A stretch of 64,000 bases of DNA from NCBI GenBank assembly GCA_046735395.1, contig JBJKQR010000016.1:1217-65216 (forward strand), given 5' to 3'. Of this stretch, positions 42,046 through 50,173 are shown in pieces. Positions within the stretch are counted from its first letter, which is position 1. Each line of letters starts with the position of its first letter. The notes under the pieces were generated by a model, which saw only the letters and a program-made list of their open reading frames with translations, ran no database searches and was not told the origin of the DNA. The stretch is from Fidelibacterota bacterium (GTDB lineage: Bacteria; Fidelibacterota; Fidelibacteria; Fidelibacterales; DSDE01). The position numbers were made by a program, and so were the translations under genes.

Positions 42046-42117
42046 GTCGCATTCGTCTAGTGGTTAGGACTCAGGACTTTCATTCCTGCAACAGGGGTTC
42101 GACTCCCCTATGCGATA
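42046..42117 (+). tRNA. tRNA-Glu (anticodon TTC); CCA not encoded
   Basis: Acceptor GTCGCAT/ATGCGAT; D arm GTCTAGTGGTTAGGAC; anticodon arm CAGGA-CTTTCAT-TCCTG; T arm AGGGG-TTCGACT-CCCCT. Confidence 0.97.
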
Positions 42118-42122
42118 CACAG

Positions 42123-42148
42123 AGCCCTCTGAAAAGAGGGCTTTTTTT
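42123..42148 (+). terminator. Intrinsic terminator after tRNA-Glu
   Basis: AGCCCTCT-GAAA-AGAGGGCT followed by a T run. Confidence 0.9.
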
Positions 42149-42316
42149 ATGAGGGTGAAAAGTGTAAATTGATCGAAACAGAAACTTGACGCAGGACACA
42201 TTTTTTCATTCATGTACAATTTAAATTTAAGCAAACCATTGAGCCGACGGGCGTCGGGATAAGGACAATTTAACCAAAACCTGAATGGCGCAATCTTAGG
42301 AAATGAAGGCGGGATT

Positions 42317-43528
42317 ATGAGAATAAACAAGAGCTGGGTTGGAGGCATACTGGTTCTGATGCTGGCAGGCGGGCTGTCTGCAACGGATCTGTCAGTAACG
42401 GAAGAATTCTTCAATGAAGGGATTGTCAGTTTTTATCTCTCAGATTTTGATCTGGAGAATCCGCAGAATAACCAGTTGATATTTGAGTACCGCATCGGTG
42501 AAAAGGGTAAAAATGACTGTACCTTTGATTCGCCGGTTACGGTCAGTTTTGAGTTCAAGCTGAAGGCACGTATTTTCAGTCTGGGCTGGGCTGGCTATCG
42601 TGACATTGCCACGGTCAATATTTACCCCTTTCAGCTGAATGGCCCCATGCGGATCAGTAATCAGCTGCTCGGAACGAATGTGGATGAGCATATGGTCAAG
42701 TATGATTGTCCCGAAGCCGGTGCATTTGTGGATATGAATGGCGGACGGGCAAGCATCAATTCGGAAAACCTCGCGGCGATTTCAAATATTGTATTTGCCA
42801 CGAATAAATTGCCGGGAGGCCAGTACAGTTTCATCTTTACTGTTTATAATGAAAGTGAAGGCGGTTCCGCGACGATCAGCCGGGATATCAATATCAGTTC
42901 CCCCACGAATCTGCAGCTGGTGAGTCCCGGAAGCAACACCGAATCCTCCGCGGCCTTTGAACAGATTTTCAGCAAATATCCTGTATTTCAGTGGGATAGT
43001 GAGAGCTGCGGCAGCTGCGAATATGCTATCCGTATCTGTAAGTTTTCACCGGATGTTCACAGCAGCAGCCTGTCTGCCCTGCAGGATGAATCCGTGCTTC
43101 CCTTTCCCGATGACGGCGGATACTATGCGCTGGGCGCAAATGTCAATTCCTATAACTATGATCCGTCCATCGCCGGACTTGAACTCGAATTCGGTGAAAG
43201 TTATGTCTGGCAGGTTCAGAAATCCTTCGGCACCTCTTCCGGAACTACCGAACTGAAGAGTGAAATTTTCGGATTCACCCTCGTGGATCCGGCCGGCGAC
43301 AATATCGGTACCGGCATTCCTTCGGATCCGGTTTCCAATGGCCTGAAGGCGCTGATCGGAGAAGACCGCTTCCGTCAGTATTTTTCATCCGGCGGAGAGC
43401 TGAACGGTTTTCTCAGCAATGGAAAAGTAACCTTGAACGGGACGTCCATTTCCGTTGGTGAATTGGAAATGATTCGAAATGCCATTCAAAACGGTTCATA
43501 CACAATTCAGAATATTTCAGTAGAGTAG
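42317..43528 (+). CDS. Secreted beta-rich protein with an FN3/DUF928-like C-terminal module (hypothetical)
   Basis: Signal peptide ending GLSA; PTNLQLVSP...PVFQW...YAIRI...LEFGESYVWQVQ pattern. Confidence 0.75.
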   Translation: MRINKSWVGGILVLMLAGGLSATDLSVTEEFFNEGIVSFYLSDFDLENPQNNQLIFEYRIGEKGKNDCTFDSPVTVSFEFKLKARIFSLGWAGYRDIATVNIYPFQLNGPMRISNQLLGTNVDEHMVKYDCPEAGAFVDMNGGRASINSENLAAISNIVFATNKLPGGQYSFIFTVYNESEGGSATISRDINISSPTNLQLVSPGSNTESSAAFEQIFSKYPVFQWDSESCGSCEYAIRICKFSPDVHSSSLSALQDESVLPFPDDGGYYALGANVNSYNYDPSIAGLELEFGESYVWQVQKSFGTSSGTTELKSEIFGFTLVDPAGDNIGTGIPSDPVSNGLKALIGEDRFRQYFSSGGELNGFLSNGKVTLNGTSISVGELEMIRNAIQNGSYTIQNISVE

Positions 43529-43537
43529 GAGGGCGGC

Positions 43538-44233
43538 ATGTTTATCAATCGACGCATTGTTACGGGTTTTGCACTCATGCTTCTTGCCATGGCCCCGCTT
43601 TTTGCCGCTCAGAAGATGGCGGTTATCACCAAGGCCCGGGGAGACGTAATGATTAAATCCGCTGCGGATAATAAATTCAGCAAGAGCGGAAAAATCGGAA
43701 CAGTTCTTGAGGACGGAGACGCCGTAAAGACCGGCAGTGACGGTTTTTCTGTCATCGTATTTCTGGATGACAAGAGTCAGGTCAAGCTTTATAACAGCTG
43801 TACCCTTGAGATCCGGGGTGAGAAACAGAACGGAGCTCTGACCAAGAGTATGGCCATGGGATTCGGAAAACTGAAGGCCGAAGTGGCCAAGCAGGTCGGC
43901 GGTGCACAATTCAAGATTGCCACTCCCACCTCCGTTGCATCCGTGAAGGGAACCGAATTCTGGATGATCAGTGATGAAAGTAACGGTGATCAGATTATCG
44001 GACTCAGCGGTCTGGTTCAGCTCCTGAATCAGGTGTCGGGACAGAGTGTCATGGTGGCATCCAATCAGACGGGGGTTTCCATGCCCGGCGGTGATGTGAA
44101 TGTGTCCGTGACCAGTCCTGAATCCATTCCGGATGAAGAGGAGGGTGCAGATGACTCCACACCGAACCAACTCCGCTTCCAGTATCAGGATTCAGACGGA
44201 AATCTTAAGGAAGTTATCATAGATTACCGGTAA
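43538..44233 (+). CDS. Stand-alone secreted FecR-domain protein
   Basis: Cleavable signal (LFA-AQ); LEDGDAVKTGSDG, FLDDKSQVKL, FKIATPTSVASVKGTEF; GGAGG RBS. Confidence 0.88.
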   Translation: MFINRRIVTGFALMLLAMAPLFAAQKMAVITKARGDVMIKSAADNKFSKSGKIGTVLEDGDAVKTGSDGFSVIVFLDDKSQVKLYNSCTLEIRGEKQNGALTKSMAMGFGKLKAEVAKQVGGAQFKIATPTSVASVKGTEFWMISDESNGDQIIGLSGLVQLLNQVSGQSVMVASNQTGVSMPGGDVNVSVTSPESIPDEEEGADDSTPNQLRFQYQDSDGNLKEVIIDYR

Positions 44234-44274
44234 TTCCGGGAGACCTTTCACTAATTATTTCCTATATTCCCAGT

Positions 44275-46812
44275 ATGTTGCGTAGTCTGCTGTGGCTGGT
44301 GCTGAGCCTGAGTGTTCTCGAGGCGGCGCCCTATGAAATCATTCATTATCCGCGAACCTCCTATTCCCTGCAGTTTCCTTTTCAGGTCGATGCTATTTTT
44401 TCCGGCGATGTTTCTCAGGTGCTGTCAGCCAGAGTACTGGGACGGCAGAGCGGCAGCAGCATATACCGTGAATTTCCCATGGACTTCGATGGCCTGAACT
44501 GGTCCGTGACCATCCCCACATCTGATTTTGATAAGAATGGTTACGAATATCTCATTGTGTTTCAATTGAAGAATGAGGGTCTGGTTACCTTTCCGGAGCA
44601 CAATCCCTTCAGCTCGCCACAGAAATGTATGTATGATAAGGACGCGGATGCAAATCTTCCCCGGGAAAGCGATGTGGAGGAGGACGTGGCCGGCGGAAGC
44701 ATTGAGTCGGGTGTCATCATTCTGTCTCCGGAACCGGGCAGCAAAATCGCGGTTCAGGATCTGGTCATAACCCTGTCGCTCTTCAATACTCCGGACGCGG
44801 ATCTGTCGTCCCTTAAAATATTTTTAGATAAAACGAATCTCACATCTTTTGCAGTCGTCACACCGGAAGTGATTACCCTTACGCCCCTTACCGGAAAATT
44901 AAAATCCGGGACTCACAGCGTGGAAGTGCGCATGAATAACAATTTCGGAGCGGCCTTCAAGCCACTGGTCTGGAGTTTCGAGCTGGTGGCGGATATCACT
45001 GAAAGCGAAAAAGTGTTCAAATCCGACGGAAAAATATCGCTTGAATACCGGAACGAAAATCTGGACGGCATCCGCAATAATCTCATGAGGGGAAAACTGA
45101 ATTACAATGGGTCGGCGGCTCAGGTATCCTACGGAGCCACTCTGAACCTGGTGGATAACGAGTCTCCCGAATTTCAGCCCCGAAACCAATACGCGGCCTT
45201 CATTAACAGCGACTACATGGATCTGGAGCTGGGTGACTGTTATCCGCTGTTTACCCGGACTGCTCTCTGGGGCAGCCGGATTCGCGGCGCTCATGCCAAT
45301 CTGAAATTCGGCCTCTTCAATTTTCAGTTCGTTACCGGGGCGAGTCTGAGAAAAGTGAACGGAAGCGCAGAATTCGTTGATTCACTGCAGACCTGGAATG
45401 TTCAGGATTATACCTACGGGCGGAATGTCATCGGCATCAAACCCAGTTTCGGGTCCGAGGATCGCTTCAATGTCTACCTGAGCGTCGTTCAGACCCGCGA
45501 TGATACGAGCAGTATTTATCCCCCGGATTTTATCGATGGATTTGATCCCCTGAATCAGAGCTACCGGCTGACCGGCGCCAAACCACGGGATAATCTGGTC
45601 ATCGGTTTCGGGCACTCCCTTATTCTCGATAACCGTAAATTCAATTGGTACAACGACATTGCCATCAGCCTGAGCAATTCGGATATCAGCCGCGGCGCCC
45701 TGGATTCCATTGCCTTCGGGGATACGACCCTGGTTTTCAGTGACCTGATGGGGATGATGGGCTTTCCTCTGACCACGGAAGCACTGGCTCCTGTTTTTAT
45801 CATAAATGAAAATACCGGGATTCCCATTCCCATTGCGCTGACTAAGGATATGACCGTGCAGGTGAGTCCGCTTACATTTTCTGCCTATCCTACTCTGGCC
45901 TGGATGTCCCAGTTTCAGCTCGATTATTACGGGCATTATGTCAATATCAATTACAAGCGCGTGGCGCCCGAGTATCAGGCCCTTGCCCACAACGGGATCA
46001 TGAGTGACAACAAGGTTCTGGATCTGTCGGACCGGATCCGCATGCTGGATAACAAACTGTTTCTGAATCTGAATTACAACAGTCAGCGTGATAATCTGCT
46101 GGAGGGAGTCAAACAGTATACCAGCGATGGCCGCAGCACGAGTATCGGTCTCAATATCATGCCCGGGCCCGGTTTTCCCACGGCAACCATCAGCATGAAA
46201 GTGCTCAATCGTTTCAATAATGCCTCGCGGGTGGATACGCTCGTGATGCAGAGTACGGACACCACCAGCCTTAATCCGGTCTCCTACAGCTTCAGTGATC
46301 CCCGGATAAATAATCAGAGCCGCTTCCAGATGCTCAACGTGAGCCAGCCCTTCCGTATTTTCGGGAAAAAGAATTCCCTGAATATTTCCTACATTTCATC
46401 AGACCGGCGGGATCTGGTTCCCAACCGGCCCGTCAATTTCATGGATATCAGCATGGGAATGGAGGCCCTGACCCTGACAGCGATCACCACGCTGAGTCCG
46501 GTTCATGTGCAGGCCCTGTCCTACAGCCGCACCCGGAATATCAGCGCGGGAACGCAGCAGTATAATTACAATATCATGGGATACAAACTGGATTCCAAAC
46601 TGTTCGCCGACCGTATTTCGAATTCGGTCAACCTGAAATATACGCGAGCTTTCGGACTGGTGAATTTCTGGCAGATAACGGCCGGGGACGACATCCGGAT
46701 GAAAATATTGCAAAATCAGTTACTATTCTCCTTTCAATTTAATAAAATAGTTCAGGATGTCAGATCAGCGAACTCGCTGAAATTTTATTTGAAATATTCG
46801 ATTACATTTTAA
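44275..46812 (+). CDS. Putative outer-membrane protein: two N-terminal Ig-like domains plus a large beta-barrel
   Basis: Signal peptide (LEA-AP); ILSPEPGS...LKSGTHSVEV Ig-like domain; ELGDCYPLFT...GSRIRG; C-terminal strand FYLKYSITF ending in Phe. Confidence 0.72.
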   Translation: MLRSLLWLVLSLSVLEAAPYEIIHYPRTSYSLQFPFQVDAIFSGDVSQVLSARVLGRQSGSSIYREFPMDFDGLNWSVTIPTSDFDKNGYEYLIVFQLKNEGLVTFPEHNPFSSPQKCMYDKDADANLPRESDVEEDVAGGSIESGVIILSPEPGSKIAVQDLVITLSLFNTPDADLSSLKIFLDKTNLTSFAVVTPEVITLTPLTGKLKSGTHSVEVRMNNNFGAAFKPLVWSFELVADITESEKVFKSDGKISLEYRNENLDGIRNNLMRGKLNYNGSAAQVSYGATLNLVDNESPEFQPRNQYAAFINSDYMDLELGDCYPLFTRTALWGSRIRGAHANLKFGLFNFQFVTGASLRKVNGSAEFVDSLQTWNVQDYTYGRNVIGIKPSFGSEDRFNVYLSVVQTRDDTSSIYPPDFIDGFDPLNQSYRLTGAKPRDNLVIGFGHSLILDNRKFNWYNDIAISLSNSDISRGALDSIAFGDTTLVFSDLMGMMGFPLTTEALAPVFIINENTGIPIPIALTKDMTVQVSPLTFSAYPTLAWMSQFQLDYYGHYVNINYKRVAPEYQALAHNGIMSDNKVLDLSDRIRMLDNKLFLNLNYNSQRDNLLEGVKQYTSDGRSTSIGLNIMPGPGFPTATISMKVLNRFNNASRVDTLVMQSTDTTSLNPVSYSFSDPRINNQSRFQMLNVSQPFRIFGKKNSLNISYISSDRRDLVPNRPVNFMDISMGMEALTLTAITTLSPVHVQALSYSRTRNISAGTQQYNYNIMGYKLDSKLFADRISNSVNLKYTRAFGLVNFWQITAGDDIRMKILQNQLLFSFQFNKIVQDVRSANSLKFYLKYSITF

Positions 46813-46817
46813 ACGGG

Positions 46818-48986
46818 GTGGGTATGAACAAGAAAAAACGACAGAATTATCTGGTAGTCGGCGGGATCCTTGTTCTGGTGTTTATCGCGGTATTAGTGAC
46901 ACGATATCTGGGACTTTTCCAGACGCTTGAATTGAAGACTCAGGATTTCAGATTTCTGCACAGAGGGCCGATTCCGCACGATGATAAAATTGTGGTGGTT
47001 TCGCTTGACCAGGAGAGCTGGGAATCCATACCCTATGACTATCCCTATCCGCGGCAGATGTGGGCGAAGGTCATTGAGAATCTGAATGAAGCCGGCGCCC
47101 GGCTCATCGTCTTTGATGTGCAGTTTGATGTGGCCCGGGAAGACAGCGCCGGAGACAAGATTTTTGCCGAGGCCATCCGCAAGGCGGGCAATGTCATTCT
47201 GGCCAGCAAGCTGAATCTTGTGGAAAAGCGCGGACAGATATTCACCAGTATCACCGAACCCTACAAGCCCTTTCTGGATGCAGCACTGGCAACAGGCCTC
47301 ATCGGGGAGCTGAAGGATATTGATCAATATACGCGGAATTATTCCATTTTCTACCCTTATGACGGGAAGTACTACCTGTTCCTGGCATTGAAGGCCGTAA
47401 AGGAATATATGGGTATTCCCGATTCGGTGAAAATGACCGTCAGCCCGGATTCAAAATATATCCTGTACGGGCCCTTGAGAATACTTCATAACCCGCGTGA
47501 AATCAATACGATGACCATTAATTACTACGGACCTTCGAAAACCTTTGAAACCTTTCCTCTGGAAAATATCATTGATGATTCGGATGTGGATCTGCGCGGG
47601 GAAGCGGATACGGACTATATGGAGCTATGGAAGAACAATTCCGTGTATCCGCCGGAAATCCTTGAAATGCTGAGAGGAGAAGACGGCGAGAGTCCCTTCA
47701 AGGATAAGATCGTGTTCATCGGGGATGCATTGGAGGAACATTTCGATCTCAAATTCACGCCCTTCTTCAACTATCATGAGGAACCCAAACTCACATCCGG
47801 CGTGGAAACCCATGCTCATGCGGCCCAGACTATTCTCGATGCCAATTACATTATTCATACTGAAAGATCGGTTGATAATATTATCGTTCTGATCATGACA
47901 ACATTGACTCTGCTAATCAGTGTGACGCTGGGACCGGTATGGGGTATCATTTCCCTGCTGGCCATCGTGGGAAGCTATATCGGAATATCGGTCTGGCTCT
48001 TTGATTCATACAATATCTGTGTGGAATGGCTGCCCGCCATCGCCGGTGCGCTCATGGCCTACGGCCTCAATACCATTTACGATTTTATCCTGGAACAGCG
48101 GGAAAAGAAAAAGATCCGTGGCATGTTCTCCACCTATATGTCACCGAAGATTCTCAGATATCTGGAAGATCATCCCGATGCCTTCCGGCTTACGGGTGAA
48201 AAACGCGAATCTTCCATCTTCTTTTCCGATGTGGAGGGATTCACCACTATTTCCGAATCTCTTTCCGCAGAAGAACTGGCCCTGGTCCTCAACAAATATC
48301 TGTCACCCATGACGGACATTCTCATGAAGTACGACGGGTATGTGGATAAATATGAGGGCGATGCCATCATGTGCGATTTCGGGGTTCCCGTTGAGGATCC
48401 GGACCACGCGTGGAAGGCCTGCTGGGCCGCACTGGATCAGCAGGAACGTCTGGTCTCGCTCCGGGAGGAACTGCTGAAGGATCACAATGTACGCGTAAAA
48501 GTCCGGATGGGAATCAATTCCGGGCTGGTATCGGCGGGAAACATGGGTTCTGATCAGCGCTTTCAGTACACGGTCATGGGGGATGCCGTCAATGCCGCGT
48601 CCCGCTTTGAAGGAGCAAATAAACAGTACGGGACCTATCTGATGATCGGTGAGAAGACCTTCAAAGCTGCTGCTGACAAGATTGAAGCCCGGGTTCTGGA
48701 CCGCCTGATCGTCAAGGGAAAGAACGAATATATCACGGTATATCATCTGCTGGCAAAAAAGGGCGAACTGTCGGATGAGGTCGCGGATATGAAAACGCAT
48801 TTTGAGAATGGCATGGATCATTACTGGAACCGGGATTTTGATGCGGCCATCGCTGAATTCCGCAAGGCTCTGGAAATCGTTGAGGACGATGCGCCTTCAA
48901 AAGTTTTCATTTCCCGATGTGAGGCGTTCAAGGAAACGCCGCCGCCGACGGACTGGCAGGGTGAATTTATTATGACGACGAAATAG
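46818..48986 (+). CDS. CHASE2-domain class III adenylate cyclase with a C-terminal TPR-like helix pair
   Basis: CHASE2 (IVVVSLDQES..YPYPR..WAKVIENL..GARLIVFDVQF; FKDKIVFIG; SGVETHA), 3 TMs, catalytic FSDVEGFT, VDKYEGDA, YTVMGDAVNAASRFEG. Confidence 0.93.
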   Translation: MGMNKKKRQNYLVVGGILVLVFIAVLVTRYLGLFQTLELKTQDFRFLHRGPIPHDDKIVVVSLDQESWESIPYDYPYPRQMWAKVIENLNEAGARLIVFDVQFDVAREDSAGDKIFAEAIRKAGNVILASKLNLVEKRGQIFTSITEPYKPFLDAALATGLIGELKDIDQYTRNYSIFYPYDGKYYLFLALKAVKEYMGIPDSVKMTVSPDSKYILYGPLRILHNPREINTMTINYYGPSKTFETFPLENIIDDSDVDLRGEADTDYMELWKNNSVYPPEILEMLRGEDGESPFKDKIVFIGDALEEHFDLKFTPFFNYHEEPKLTSGVETHAHAAQTILDANYIIHTERSVDNIIVLIMTTLTLLISVTLGPVWGIISLLAIVGSYIGISVWLFDSYNICVEWLPAIAGALMAYGLNTIYDFILEQREKKKIRGMFSTYMSPKILRYLEDHPDAFRLTGEKRESSIFFSDVEGFTTISESLSAEELALVLNKYLSPMTDILMKYDGYVDKYEGDAIMCDFGVPVEDPDHAWKACWAALDQQERLVSLREELLKDHNVRVKVRMGINSGLVSAGNMGSDQRFQYTVMGDAVNAASRFEGANKQYGTYLMIGEKTFKAAADKIEARVLDRLIVKGKNEYITVYHLLAKKGELSDEVADMKTHFENGMDHYWNRDFDAAIAEFRKALEIVEDDAPSKVFISRCEAFKETPPPTDWQGEFIMTTK

Positions 48987-48994
48987 CTGTTGAT

Positions 48995-50173
48995 TCAGGC
49001 CTGCAGCTCGATCCGGAAGGTCGTTCCGGCTCCGGCTGATGTCTGTAATATATAAATCCGGCCTTTGTGATATTCTTCAATGATCCGCTGGGTCAGGCTC
49101 AGTCCCAGGCCCCAGCCGCGCTTTTTAGTACTGAAACCTGCCTTGAAAACGGATTTCCGGAATTTTTCGGGTATACCTTTACCCGTATCGGACACATCAA
49201 TGAATACTTTTCGGTCATTGATACTCTTCAGGTTCACGGATATGGTACCGGCCTGCCCCTCCAGCGCGTCAACCGCGTTCTTGATGAGATTCTCCAGGGC
49301 CCATTCGAGCAGATCTCCGTTGCCTTTCAGCTTGAGCGGTGTGTAGTGCCTGCCGTCGAAGAGAAGTTCCACATTGGAGTTTTTCCGGGGGATGCGGGTG
49401 CTCATGTATTCCTGAACATTGTGTATGTGCGTTTCCAGCTGTATGGGGGTGCGTCGGGTCCTGGATCCGATCTGGGAAAAGCGATGGGATACCTTTTCCA
49501 GCCGCTGTATGTCACGGTCCATCTCTTCAAATTCATTGACATCACGTCCGAAGCGTTCCCGGGCAAGTTCCAGCCAGCCCATGAGCGAGGAGATGGGAGT
49601 GCCCAGCTGGTGCGCGGTTTCCTTTGCCATGCCCACCCAGATGAACTTCTTTTCGGATGACCGGATATATTCAAAGACCATGAAGGCAAAGAGGATGAGG
49701 ATGGTCGCACCGAAGATTTCGATGAAGGGCATCCATTTCAGGCGGGTAATGACCTGGGAGTCACCGTAGTGAATATAGCTGATGGGTCGGTTGTCATATT
49801 CGAGCATGACGGGCCGGGTGTAGCGGTCCATTTCCCGGGCCTTTTTCAGAAGGAGAGCTGTCTTTTCCTCATTGAGCCGGTCTGTATTGGGAATATCCGG
49901 AATGTTTTTCCAGGCAGTTATTTCACTGTTAGGCCGGGCTGTGATGATGATGGGAAAGGTCAGCCGGTTGATGATTTCATCAAAAATGAAGGAGAAGTCA
50001 CCGATCTGGTCATTGCTGGCCAGCTTGGCGTATAATTCGGTATAGATGGACAGGACGCGCTCGGATTCATGTCTGAGATTATTCACATTCTGGTGTGAGT
50101 AGATGATGACGCCCAAAATAAACAACAGAGATACGGTCAGAAAAAATAGTTTGATTCTGGATGTTGAAAACAT
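48995..50173 (-). CDS. Membrane sensor histidine kinase
   Basis: Two TMs, WVGMAKETAHQLGTPISSL, ENLIKNAVDA, DTGKG, GWGLGLSL. Confidence 0.92.
   Translation of the reverse strand: MFSTSRIKLFFLTVSLLFILGVIIYSHQNVNNLRHESERVLSIYTELYAKLASNDQIGDFSFIFDEIINRLTFPIIITARPNSEITAWKNIPDIPNTDRLNEEKTALLLKKAREMDRYTRPVMLEYDNRPISYIHYGDSQVITRLKWMPFIEIFGATILILFAFMVFEYIRSSEKKFIWVGMAKETAHQLGTPISSLMGWLELARERFGRDVNEFEEMDRDIQRLEKVSHRFSQIGSRTRRTPIQLETHIHNVQEYMSTRIPRKNSNVELLFDGRHYTPLKLKGNGDLLEWALENLIKNAVDALEGQAGTISVNLKSINDRKVFIDVSDTGKGIPEKFRKSVFKAGFSTKKRGWGLGLSLTQRIIEEYHKGRIYILQTSAGAGTTFRIELQA

Follow-up and report, generated by a model that had tools for sequence, protein, structure and literature searches.

A conserved four-gene cassette in a Fidelibacterota genome as a possible split counterpart of the NsrA-CyaK relay

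We analysed a stretch of 64,000 nucleotides from a Fidelibacterota bacterium (GenBank assembly GCA_046735395.1, contig JBJKQR010000016.1, positions 1,217 to 65,216 of the forward strand; this whole stretch is called the window, and its own numbering is used here), in which four genes, g1 to g4, form a real and strongly conserved cassette at 42317-48986. They encode a secreted protein, a periplasmic FecR-domain protein, a barrel predicted to lie in the outer membrane and, for the inner membrane, a class III cyclase with a CHASE2 domain. In the reading that we prefer, with a probability of roughly 0.55, the cassette relays an event at the outer membrane to cyclic AMP (cAMP), as a split and differently built counterpart of the NsrA-CyaK system of Sinorhizobium meliloti. 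All four genes lie on the + strand, as does every feature described below unless stated otherwise, and the gaps between their open reading frames (ORFs) are 9, 41 and 5 bp. An earlier note, written from the sequence alone, had described four co-oriented genes with these gaps, a tRNA terminator upstream and a convergent gene downstream, and the ORF coordinates, ARAGORN and a hairpin scan agree with that layout. The principle of pairing FecR with CHASE2 is already published and is not new (PMC5192318, PMC9239204, PMC5498481; papers with PMC numbers are cited throughout for individual passages). What is new here is a proposed relay of the NsrA-CyaK type, and a FecR-CHASE2 pairing, made from two unannotated protein families, those of g1 and g3. 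Our literature search found nothing on this cassette in bacteria of the Fibrobacteres-Chlorobi-Bacteroidetes (FCB) group.

Homologues of g3 were detected in 285 of the 401 sampled genomes of the phylum, our own genome included, and gene order was surveyed at 51 places, made up of 29 top loci, 2 further wide loci and 20 divergent places hand-picked from the lower part of the g3 match list, with long contigs chosen. The order g1-g2-g3-g4 was complete at 46 of these 51 places, and the remaining five consisted of one place cut by a contig end, one without a g1 match and three cyclase-free trios. All 29 of the top loci, which come from other genomes, had g1, g2 and g3 in the same order, and g4 followed in 28, the single miss falling at a contig end. 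Twenty wider loci (18 repeats of places already surveyed and 2 new ones) carried full-length g1 to g4 with gaps of -92 to 77 bp, except for one g4 cut by a contig end and one g2 that was missed by the ORF filter and for which a tblastn match is present. Even the 20 divergent places held all four genes in 16 cases, with one place lacking a detectable g1 and three having g1-g2-g3 without a cyclase in the stretch examined. Because it is conserved across genomes, the arrangement is, by these sequence comparisons, far beyond chance.

The best named homologue of g3 came from a Marinimicrobia bin, and its neighbours in a protein atlas were Fidelibacterota clusters containing hypothetical proteins only. 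Neither CHASE2 nor g3 was detected in the families f11 (0/37 genomes), f28 (0/8) and f4 (0/1) and both were found in most other families of the phylum; one genus had neither (0/22 genomes), and one had CHASE2 in 5/5 genomes and g3 in 0/5. Related genomes are not independent of each other and no statistics were drawn from this phyletic pattern.

Beyond the phylum, a search of 1.84 billion representatives with the g3 profile matched 3696 representative clusters at E <= 0.001, 635 of them reaching E <= 1e-30. Ten members of the family were looked up, and the three with an organism name belonged to Marinimicrobia, candidate division KSB1 and Candidatus Electryonea, with two more being hypothetical proteins. 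One KSB1 genome holds the whole cassette as closely packed ORFs of 361, 237, 842 and 712 amino acids (aa), and relatives of g3 were present in 85 of the 121 sampled KSB1 genomes, one of which is flagged as unpublished and enters no result but this count. At 19 KSB1 loci g3 and g4 were adjacent in 18, g2 was found in 16 and g1 in 12, and all of the misses were at flanks that were too short. In the best tblastn segments the window proteins are about 24-35% identical to their KSB1 counterparts, and in the survey beyond the phylum the median identity to the window proteins was 33, 42, 29 and 51% for g1, g2, g3 and g4, respectively. Judged from these searches, the families of g1 and g3 are large and without annotation. 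The earlier note had proposed neighbourhood conservation as a check, and the four genes do stay adjacent, both at the 46 of 51 places within the phylum and in KSB1.

The signalling output of the cassette would come from g4 (46818..48986; 722 aa, GTG start), which by its ORF, Pfam matches and hydropathy is a class III cyclase of the inner membrane with a CHASE2 domain and a C-terminus resembling TPR. Its CHASE2 periplasmic sensor (46878..47915, aa 21-366; PF05226, E 4.8e-39) is bracketed by hydrophobic segments at residues 10-28 and 355-384, and its class III catalytic domain (48207..48740, aa 464-641) matches PF00211, Guanylate_cyc, at E 2.6e-24. A TPR-like repeat in the cytoplasmic tail (48795..48887, aa 660-690) is weak, with a TPR_2 match at E 0.0024 and 18.3 bits lying under the cut-off of 27; in the alignment of orthologues this tail is conserved to the last residue. 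The closest solved relative by sequence was the catalytic domain of Pseudomonas aeruginosa CyaB (3r5g, E 6e-31), with whose counterparts the motifs FFSDVEGFT, DKYEGD and YTVMGDAVNAASRFE of g4 align. Residues D471, K511, D515, T585, N592 and R596 were invariant among 20 orthologues, and we take them to be the two Asp that bind metal, a Lys/Thr pair as is usual in adenylate cyclases, and the Asn and Arg of the transition state. Pfam, hydropathy and the CyaB alignment thus agree with the claim of the earlier note that this gene encodes an inner-membrane CHASE2 cyclase with intact motifs.

The periplasmic component is g2 (43538..44233; 231 aa), a FecR-domain protein with a signal-peptide-like N-terminus, assigned from its ORF, Pfam and hydropathy. 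The FecR domain (43721..44008, aa 62-157) matches PF04773 at E 2.1e-7 with 31.7 bits against a cut-off of 24 and, with the signal-like N-terminus, bears out the predicted combination of a FecR domain and a signal peptide. This N-terminal segment is the only hydrophobic one in the protein, which has no internal membrane helix and no cytoplasmic anti-sigma domain. Across 20 orthologues the FecR core was strongly conserved, and the same alignment revealed a conserved C-terminal tail (44150..44230, approximately aa 205-231) that follows an acidic linker and contains about 20 residues with the consensus LRIQLQNxQGDxKxxKIEYK. This tail is a candidate docking peptide, a function suggested by its conservation. 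Pfam gave no TPR match in either g2 or g3. Partial matches of g2 to the Leptospira FecR-type proteins LipL45 and Lsa33 (NCBIfam) were far under the cut-offs of those families; a link between LipL45-type proteins and cyclases is at most tentative. Cyclase, CHASE and operon go unmentioned in a paper on Leptospira FecR proteins (PMC13719327), and the passage on FecR and LipL45 in a 2014 Leptospira review names no cyclase.

The outer-membrane component would be g3 (44275..46812; 845 aa), a member of an unannotated family that has a signal-peptide-like N-terminus and ends in Phe (...YSITF). The AlphaFold2 model, built on an alignment of 24 sequences with a predicted local distance difference test score (pLDDT) of 81.2, places two N-terminal immunoglobulin (Ig)-like beta sandwiches (44332..44988, aa ~20-120 and 145-238) before a beta barrel (45019..46809, aa 249-845) of about 24-26 long strands, as counted by eye from the DSSP string. 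For the first sandwich, the match to the Ig-like domain of 5ak7 had a Z of 13.2 and a root-mean-square deviation (rmsd) of 2.5 over 105 aligned residues. The best structural match of the barrel was MtrB (6r2q_B; Z 20.0, rmsd 5.1, 443 residues aligned, 7% identity), and the next ones, at Z <= 15.8, were porins, PapC/FimD ushers (Z 14-15) and TonB-dependent receptors (Z ~12-13.6). Foldseek also returned g3 as an outer-membrane barrel, with TM <= 0.34 and no family named. Based on the predicted structure, we conclude that g3 is probably an outer-membrane barrel. The model and these matches uphold the description in the earlier note of N-terminal Ig-like domains followed by a barrel that ends in Phe, on which the note had asked for a check by profile and structure prediction at 44275-46812.

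No family assignment of g3 emerged from Pfam or NCBIfam, and none of the 24 family members fell into any secretion family at E <= 1. The same scan found no Plug, TonB_dep_Rec or STN family in any of the 24, as expected from the earlier statement that g3 has no TonB-receptor plug, and neither the Slam barrel (DUF560) nor the Slam TPR domain was matched, a separation from Slam that was made by Pfam models alone. A fusion of g3 with FecR was considered and rejected, as none of 10 long family members carries a FecR domain. The giant proteins P0081 (3051 aa) and P0101 (4022 aa) contain 18-20 copies of the first Ig-like domain of g3, and P0081 additionally has beta-helix, PKD and Big_7 domains; on sequence evidence the Ig-like domain is a repeat module of large surface-type proteins.

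The first gene of the cassette, g1 (42317..43528; 403 aa), is modelled as two FN3-like beta sandwiches (aa ~23-193 and 196-325) followed by a small C-terminal alpha/beta unit, with a pLDDT of 78.8 on an alignment of 20 sequences. Its structural matches were generic FN3 domains at Z 8-9.2, and its translation and hydropathy point to a signal-peptide-like N-terminus; for g1, g2 and g3 alike, signal peptides were judged from sequence and hydropathy rather than by a dedicated predictor. The signal-like N-terminus and the two sandwiches support the earlier view of g1 as a secreted beta protein, while the proposed likeness to DUF928 found no confirmation (PF06051, 0/20 family members at E <= 1) and a literature search on DUF928 brought up a single paper, on an unrelated matter. 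There were no Pfam or NCBIfam matches to g1 itself, and no Pfam family was matched by any of its 20 family members at E <= 1. The family scans of g1 and g3, run on every alignment member at this threshold, gave only stray sub-threshold matches to Ig domains. No match to a type IX secretion system (T9SS) C-terminal domain was found in g1 with NCBIfam, and no CxxCH haem motif was seen in the translations of g1 or g2.

For comparison with NsrA-CyaK, the locus on pSymB of S. meliloti Rm41, found with g4, contains a 1216-aa ORF directly upstream of a 649-aa CHASE2 cyclase, the stop of the former overlapping the start of the latter. This ORF has a FecR domain at residues 85-179, TPR at 436-550 and an unannotated C-terminal half, and the same pair of ORF and CHASE2 cyclase was found in Ensifer adhaerens. 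NsrA has been described as a receptor associated with the outer membrane, its barrel portion spanning residues 600-1200, and signal perception needs both NsrA and CyaK (PMC7529298). With CHASE2 cyclases (CyaK, CyaD1/D2) NsrA converts a protein signal, the ribosomal protein uL2, into cAMP, which Clr then reads (PMC13001267, PMC7529298). From its position, its length and the published barrel range, the 1216-aa ORF appears to be NsrA. Its FecR domain and that of g2 are homologous (hhalign probability 93%, E 3.5e-7). The two systems therefore have in common a barrel component and a FecR domain encoded immediately 5' of a CHASE2 class III cyclase of the inner membrane, and they differ in that FecR, TPR and barrel form one chain in NsrA, whereas the cassette encodes g2 and g3 in two ORFs with 41 bp between them. 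Unlike NsrA, the cassette barrel carries two N-terminal Ig-like domains and no periplasmic TPR; the cassette also has the extra secreted gene g1 and a cyclase with a cytoplasmic TPR-like tail, which the NsrA-CyaK system lacks, and its hosts are free-living members of the FCB group rather than a plant symbiont. By analogy, the cassette reads as a split NsrA-CyaK-like relay with a barrel of a different family. The parallel with NsrA and CyaK that the earlier note had drawn is in fact closer than it claimed, since the NsrA-like ORF itself carries a FecR domain beside a CHASE2 cyclase.

FecR proteins have been seen beside CHASE2 sensors in other lineages. The S. meliloti gene smc02177 presumably adjoins cyaD1. 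It is a FecR-domain gene and a target of Clr (PMC5498481). A Burkholderia operon contains genes for a response regulator, a LysM-FecR protein, a CHASE2 histidine kinase and a DUF4136 protein, with a two-gene form in P. aeruginosa (PMC5192318), and a Campylobacterota cluster contains a CHASE2 cyclase, a phosphodiesterase, a FecR protein and a TPR protein (PMC9239204). As in the cassette, these systems place a secreted FecR protein beside a CHASE2 sensor, and the two have been proposed to act in the same pathway (PMC5192318, PMC9239204). As described there, the clusters differ from the cassette in having no g3-family barrel and no g1, in FecR proteins with LysM or other additions, and in their outputs, a histidine kinase in Burkholderia and a cyclase plus phosphodiesterase in Campylobacterota. 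On a Niveispirillum plasmid (L115, 14-7854), genes for an MBG-repeat protein, a TPR-CHAT protein and a 226-aa protein of no family lie upstream of a CHASE2 cyclase gene on the same strand. Across the sequences compared, the partners of CHASE2 differ between lineages.

The cassette also resembles FecA-FecR-FecI of Escherichia coli in that a periplasmic FecR stands between an outer-membrane barrel and a signalling step at the inner membrane, and differs from it in having neither a TonB plug or signalling domain, nor a transmembrane anti-sigma part, nor an extracytoplasmic function (ECF) sigma factor, and in having a cyclase as output. In MtrB, a large barrel surrounds a partner protein of the periplasm. 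The likeness of the g3 barrel to MtrB, in the MtrCAB complex (6r2q chain B), is one of size and shape only: MtrB has no N-terminal Ig-like domains, and no multihaem cytochrome partners were seen in the cassette.

In our preferred reading, g3 would be a large outer-membrane barrel with its two Ig-like domains hanging into the periplasm, where they are expected to lie, and g1 would be a ligand-binding or barrel-associated subunit that makes up the outer-membrane unit together with g3. The product of g2, soluble in the periplasm, would dock on the g3 or g1 side, possibly via its C-terminal tail, and would contact the CHASE2 domain of g4. A change in the barrel, caused either by binding of an external macromolecule or by altered barrel occupancy, would then pass through FecR to CHASE2; inhibition of the cytoplasmic class III cyclase by CHASE2 would be relieved and cAMP would rise. 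The genome encodes seven proteins that bind cyclic nucleotide monophosphates (cNMP), one or more of which would read the cAMP. In this scheme we infer how the proteins touch one another, which way the signal travels, where g1 resides, what the ligand is and which nucleotide is produced. The earlier note had likewise read the cassette as passing a surface cue through FecR to CHASE2 and on to cAMP, an interpretation that our results support in part. FecR looks like the shared adaptor between the outer-membrane unit and the CHASE2 sensor, a bridging role assigned to it because it is the sole component common to barrel modules and CHASE2 modules. Constitutive production of cAMP by CyaD1 without CHASE2 (figure legend, PMC5498481) fits, by analogy, an inhibitory role for the CHASE2 sensor, and for CHASE2 itself the literature passages gave no ligand or activation mechanism.

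Several observations weigh against such a relay. Neither a cAMP receptor nor a phosphodiesterase gene lies within the cassette, and the nucleotide specificity of g4, and with it the presumed output nucleotide, leans on residue roles known from other class III cyclases. When the g3 profile was compared with the 1216-aa NsrA-like ORF the hhalign probability was 0.2%, and tblastn of g3 against all plasmids gave no match, so the likeness between g3 and NsrA is, as far as these comparisons go, one of architecture and not of shared barrel descent. In S. meliloti, the FecR protein SMc02177 and its neighbour SMc02178 were reported to be unnecessary for perception of the plant signal (PMC5498481), and therefore a FecR gene beside a CHASE2 cyclase need not act upstream in the pathway. 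The genome also has a second CHASE2-cyclase-TPR gene (718 aa; contig C8, L003:6307-9695, - strand) of the same architecture, 27% identical to g4 over the full length, which is followed by a gene for an M48 peptidase carrying an SH3 domain and next to which neither FecR nor a barrel is encoded. Finally, the g1-g2-g3 trio occurs without a cyclase at three of the 20 divergent loci and on contig C60 of the same genome (L078:25-9535, + strand), where no cyclase follows it and the next genes, for glycolysis, are on the other strand.

In the C60 trio, the first gene is truncated at the contig start and encodes at least 1868 aa, the second encodes a FecR protein of 392 aa and the third a g3 homologue of 900 aa, whose homology extends across both Ig-like domains and the barrel (hhalign probability 99.9%, E 8e-35). 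The giant protein, which has four Ig_Rha78A_N domains, fn3 domains and a segment that scores with DUF928, contains the second domain of g1 (probability 97.3%, E 1.8e-11); the DUF928 score falls at residues 274-362, beside the g1-like part (124-255) and not overlapping it. Since the trio exists without a cyclase, it must do more than signal to one; the cyclase is then an output joined to an outer-membrane module that can stand by itself and that may serve primarily for something other than signalling. Two CHASE2 matches were observed in many genomes of the phylum. Contig C62 (L079:5888-8320, + strand) encodes a third FecR-domain protein, of 810 aa, with a 257-aa neighbour of no known family.

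These cyclase-free trios bring forward the possibility, plausible though clearly less probable than the relay, that the trio is an outer-membrane machine for export or assembly, whose barrel moves g1-type FN3 proteins to the cell surface, sheathes them or anchors them there, with FecR as periplasmic chaperone or adaptor and a cyclase that monitors the load or feeds back on it instead of sensing an external cue. On C60 the position of g1 is taken by a giant adhesin-like protein that shares a domain with g1, next to a barrel homologous to g3, and the barrels that resemble g3 most closely in structure, MtrB (Z 20.0) and the PapC/FimD ushers (Z 14-15), hold or pass proteins. As g1 has no match to a T9SS C-terminal domain, it would need another route if it were exposed at the surface; however, g1 is only predicted to be secreted, with no sign placing it outside the cell, and the barrel belongs to no known Pfam secretion family (0/24 members at E <= 1). 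Retention of the cyclase beside the trio at 46 of 51 places, and the adjacency of g3 and g4 at 18 of 19 loci in KSB1, argue for a tight functional link with the cyclase. The export machine and the relay are not mutually exclusive, and both can hold. A looser association, in which the genes serve separate envelope functions in an operon of convenience and the cyclase senses a ligand of its own through CHASE2 without any partner, seems to us unlikely. It would account for the varied neighbours of CHASE2 cyclases (M48/SH3 for the paralogue in this genome, MBG and TPR-CHAT in Niveispirillum) and for the dispensability of SMc02177 and SMc02178 (PMC5498481), and part of the adjacency could be inertia, as the flanking synteny, with rRNA or tRNA genes upstream, is conserved as well. 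Order and tight spacing have nevertheless been kept between two phyla at about 24-35% identity while the flanks differ, a FecR-barrel fusion adjoins a CHASE2 cyclase in rhizobia, and NsrA is genetically required together with CyaK (PMC7529298), all of which speak for a shared function.

Classical FecR signalling, with a TonB-dependent transducer, a FecR anti-sigma protein and an ECF sigma factor encoded elsewhere, is very improbable here. The FecR domain of g2 invites this explanation, TonB-dependent receptors do occur among the structural matches of the barrel (Z ~12-13.6), and the genome does have a gene for an ECF-type sigma factor elsewhere, beside its second CHASE2 locus. At only 231 aa, however, g2 has neither an anti-sigma domain nor an internal membrane helix, Plug, TonB_dep_Rec and STN are missing from all 24 members of the g3 family at E <= 1, and the match to MtrB (Z 20.0) stands clearly above those to TonB-dependent receptors. 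Nine proteins around the cassette were scanned with Pfam and none had a sigma-70 domain, in keeping with the earlier statement that no ECF sigma factor accompanies it.

A more far-reaching and rather speculative view, which we consider doubtful, takes the trio as an autonomous, widespread and undescribed outer-membrane machine of FCB bacteria. Its barrel, with about 26 strands and from a new family, would hold a partner protein or let it through, in the way that MtrB encloses MtrA, serving as a protein conduit across the outer membrane, and FecR would be a universal periplasmic plug-in to CHASE2 cyclases, to kinases or to nothing. If the conduit were real, the cassette would be a protein-threaded trans-envelope signalling wire and not a conventional receptor. 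Marinimicrobia are abundant and barely cultured ocean bacteria, about 7 in 10 of the sampled genomes carry the barrel gene, nearly always within the cassette, and the cassette is probably among their main routes for coupling the cell surface to a second messenger. The comparison with NsrA yields a testable rule, namely that FecR domains act as adaptors joining outer-membrane barrels to CHASE2 sensors, and reconstitution should be simpler for a split system with small soluble parts than for NsrA, a fusion of 1216 aa.

The 3' boundary of the cassette is set by a convergent histidine kinase gene (48995-50173), beyond which lie prmC and prfA. Only 8 bp (48987-48994) separate the stop of g4 from that of the histidine kinase gene, and the scan reported no terminator-like hairpin between them. 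The kinase was considered as a further member of the unit and rejected, the position 3' of the cassette being held by a histidine kinase here, by DnaG in order-level relatives and by REC-PglZ in other families. Several of these families have, 3' of the cyclase gene and on its strand, a gene for a response regulator with a PglZ domain and then tsaE (L039:9947-12002, L050:7789-9854, L049:889-2523). The architecture of this REC-PglZ protein is that of PorX. Its membership of the unit was likewise rejected, since in our own genome the sole PglZ gene lies on another contig (C63). No cytochrome family was found with Pfam among the neighbours of the cassette.

The 5' boundary is formed by a tRNA-Glu (UUC) gene (42046..42118, ARAGORN), whose transcription unit is ended by a terminator-like hairpin of 10 pairs followed by a T run (42121..42144, from the scan and a reading of the sequence); the tRNA gene is preceded by a divergent gene for an acyl-CoA ligase. 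In the promoter scan the best candidate was a sigma-70-like site scoring 9/12 at 42193-42220, and the total of 15 sites against 9.1 +/- 3.5 in shuffled sequences was uninformative. A tRNA-Glu gene also lies 5' of the cassette in 4 of the 20 wider loci (L035-L038). In other families of the phylum the cassette begins about 150-200 bp past the 23S-5S rRNA genes (L040, L042, L047, L052), and many contigs end 2.5-3.5 kb 5' of g3, as an rRNA repeat would predict. For the window and its order-level relatives, tRNA-Glu occupies the place held by the rRNA genes elsewhere, and this constant location behind stable-RNA genes may bear on the expression of the cassette.

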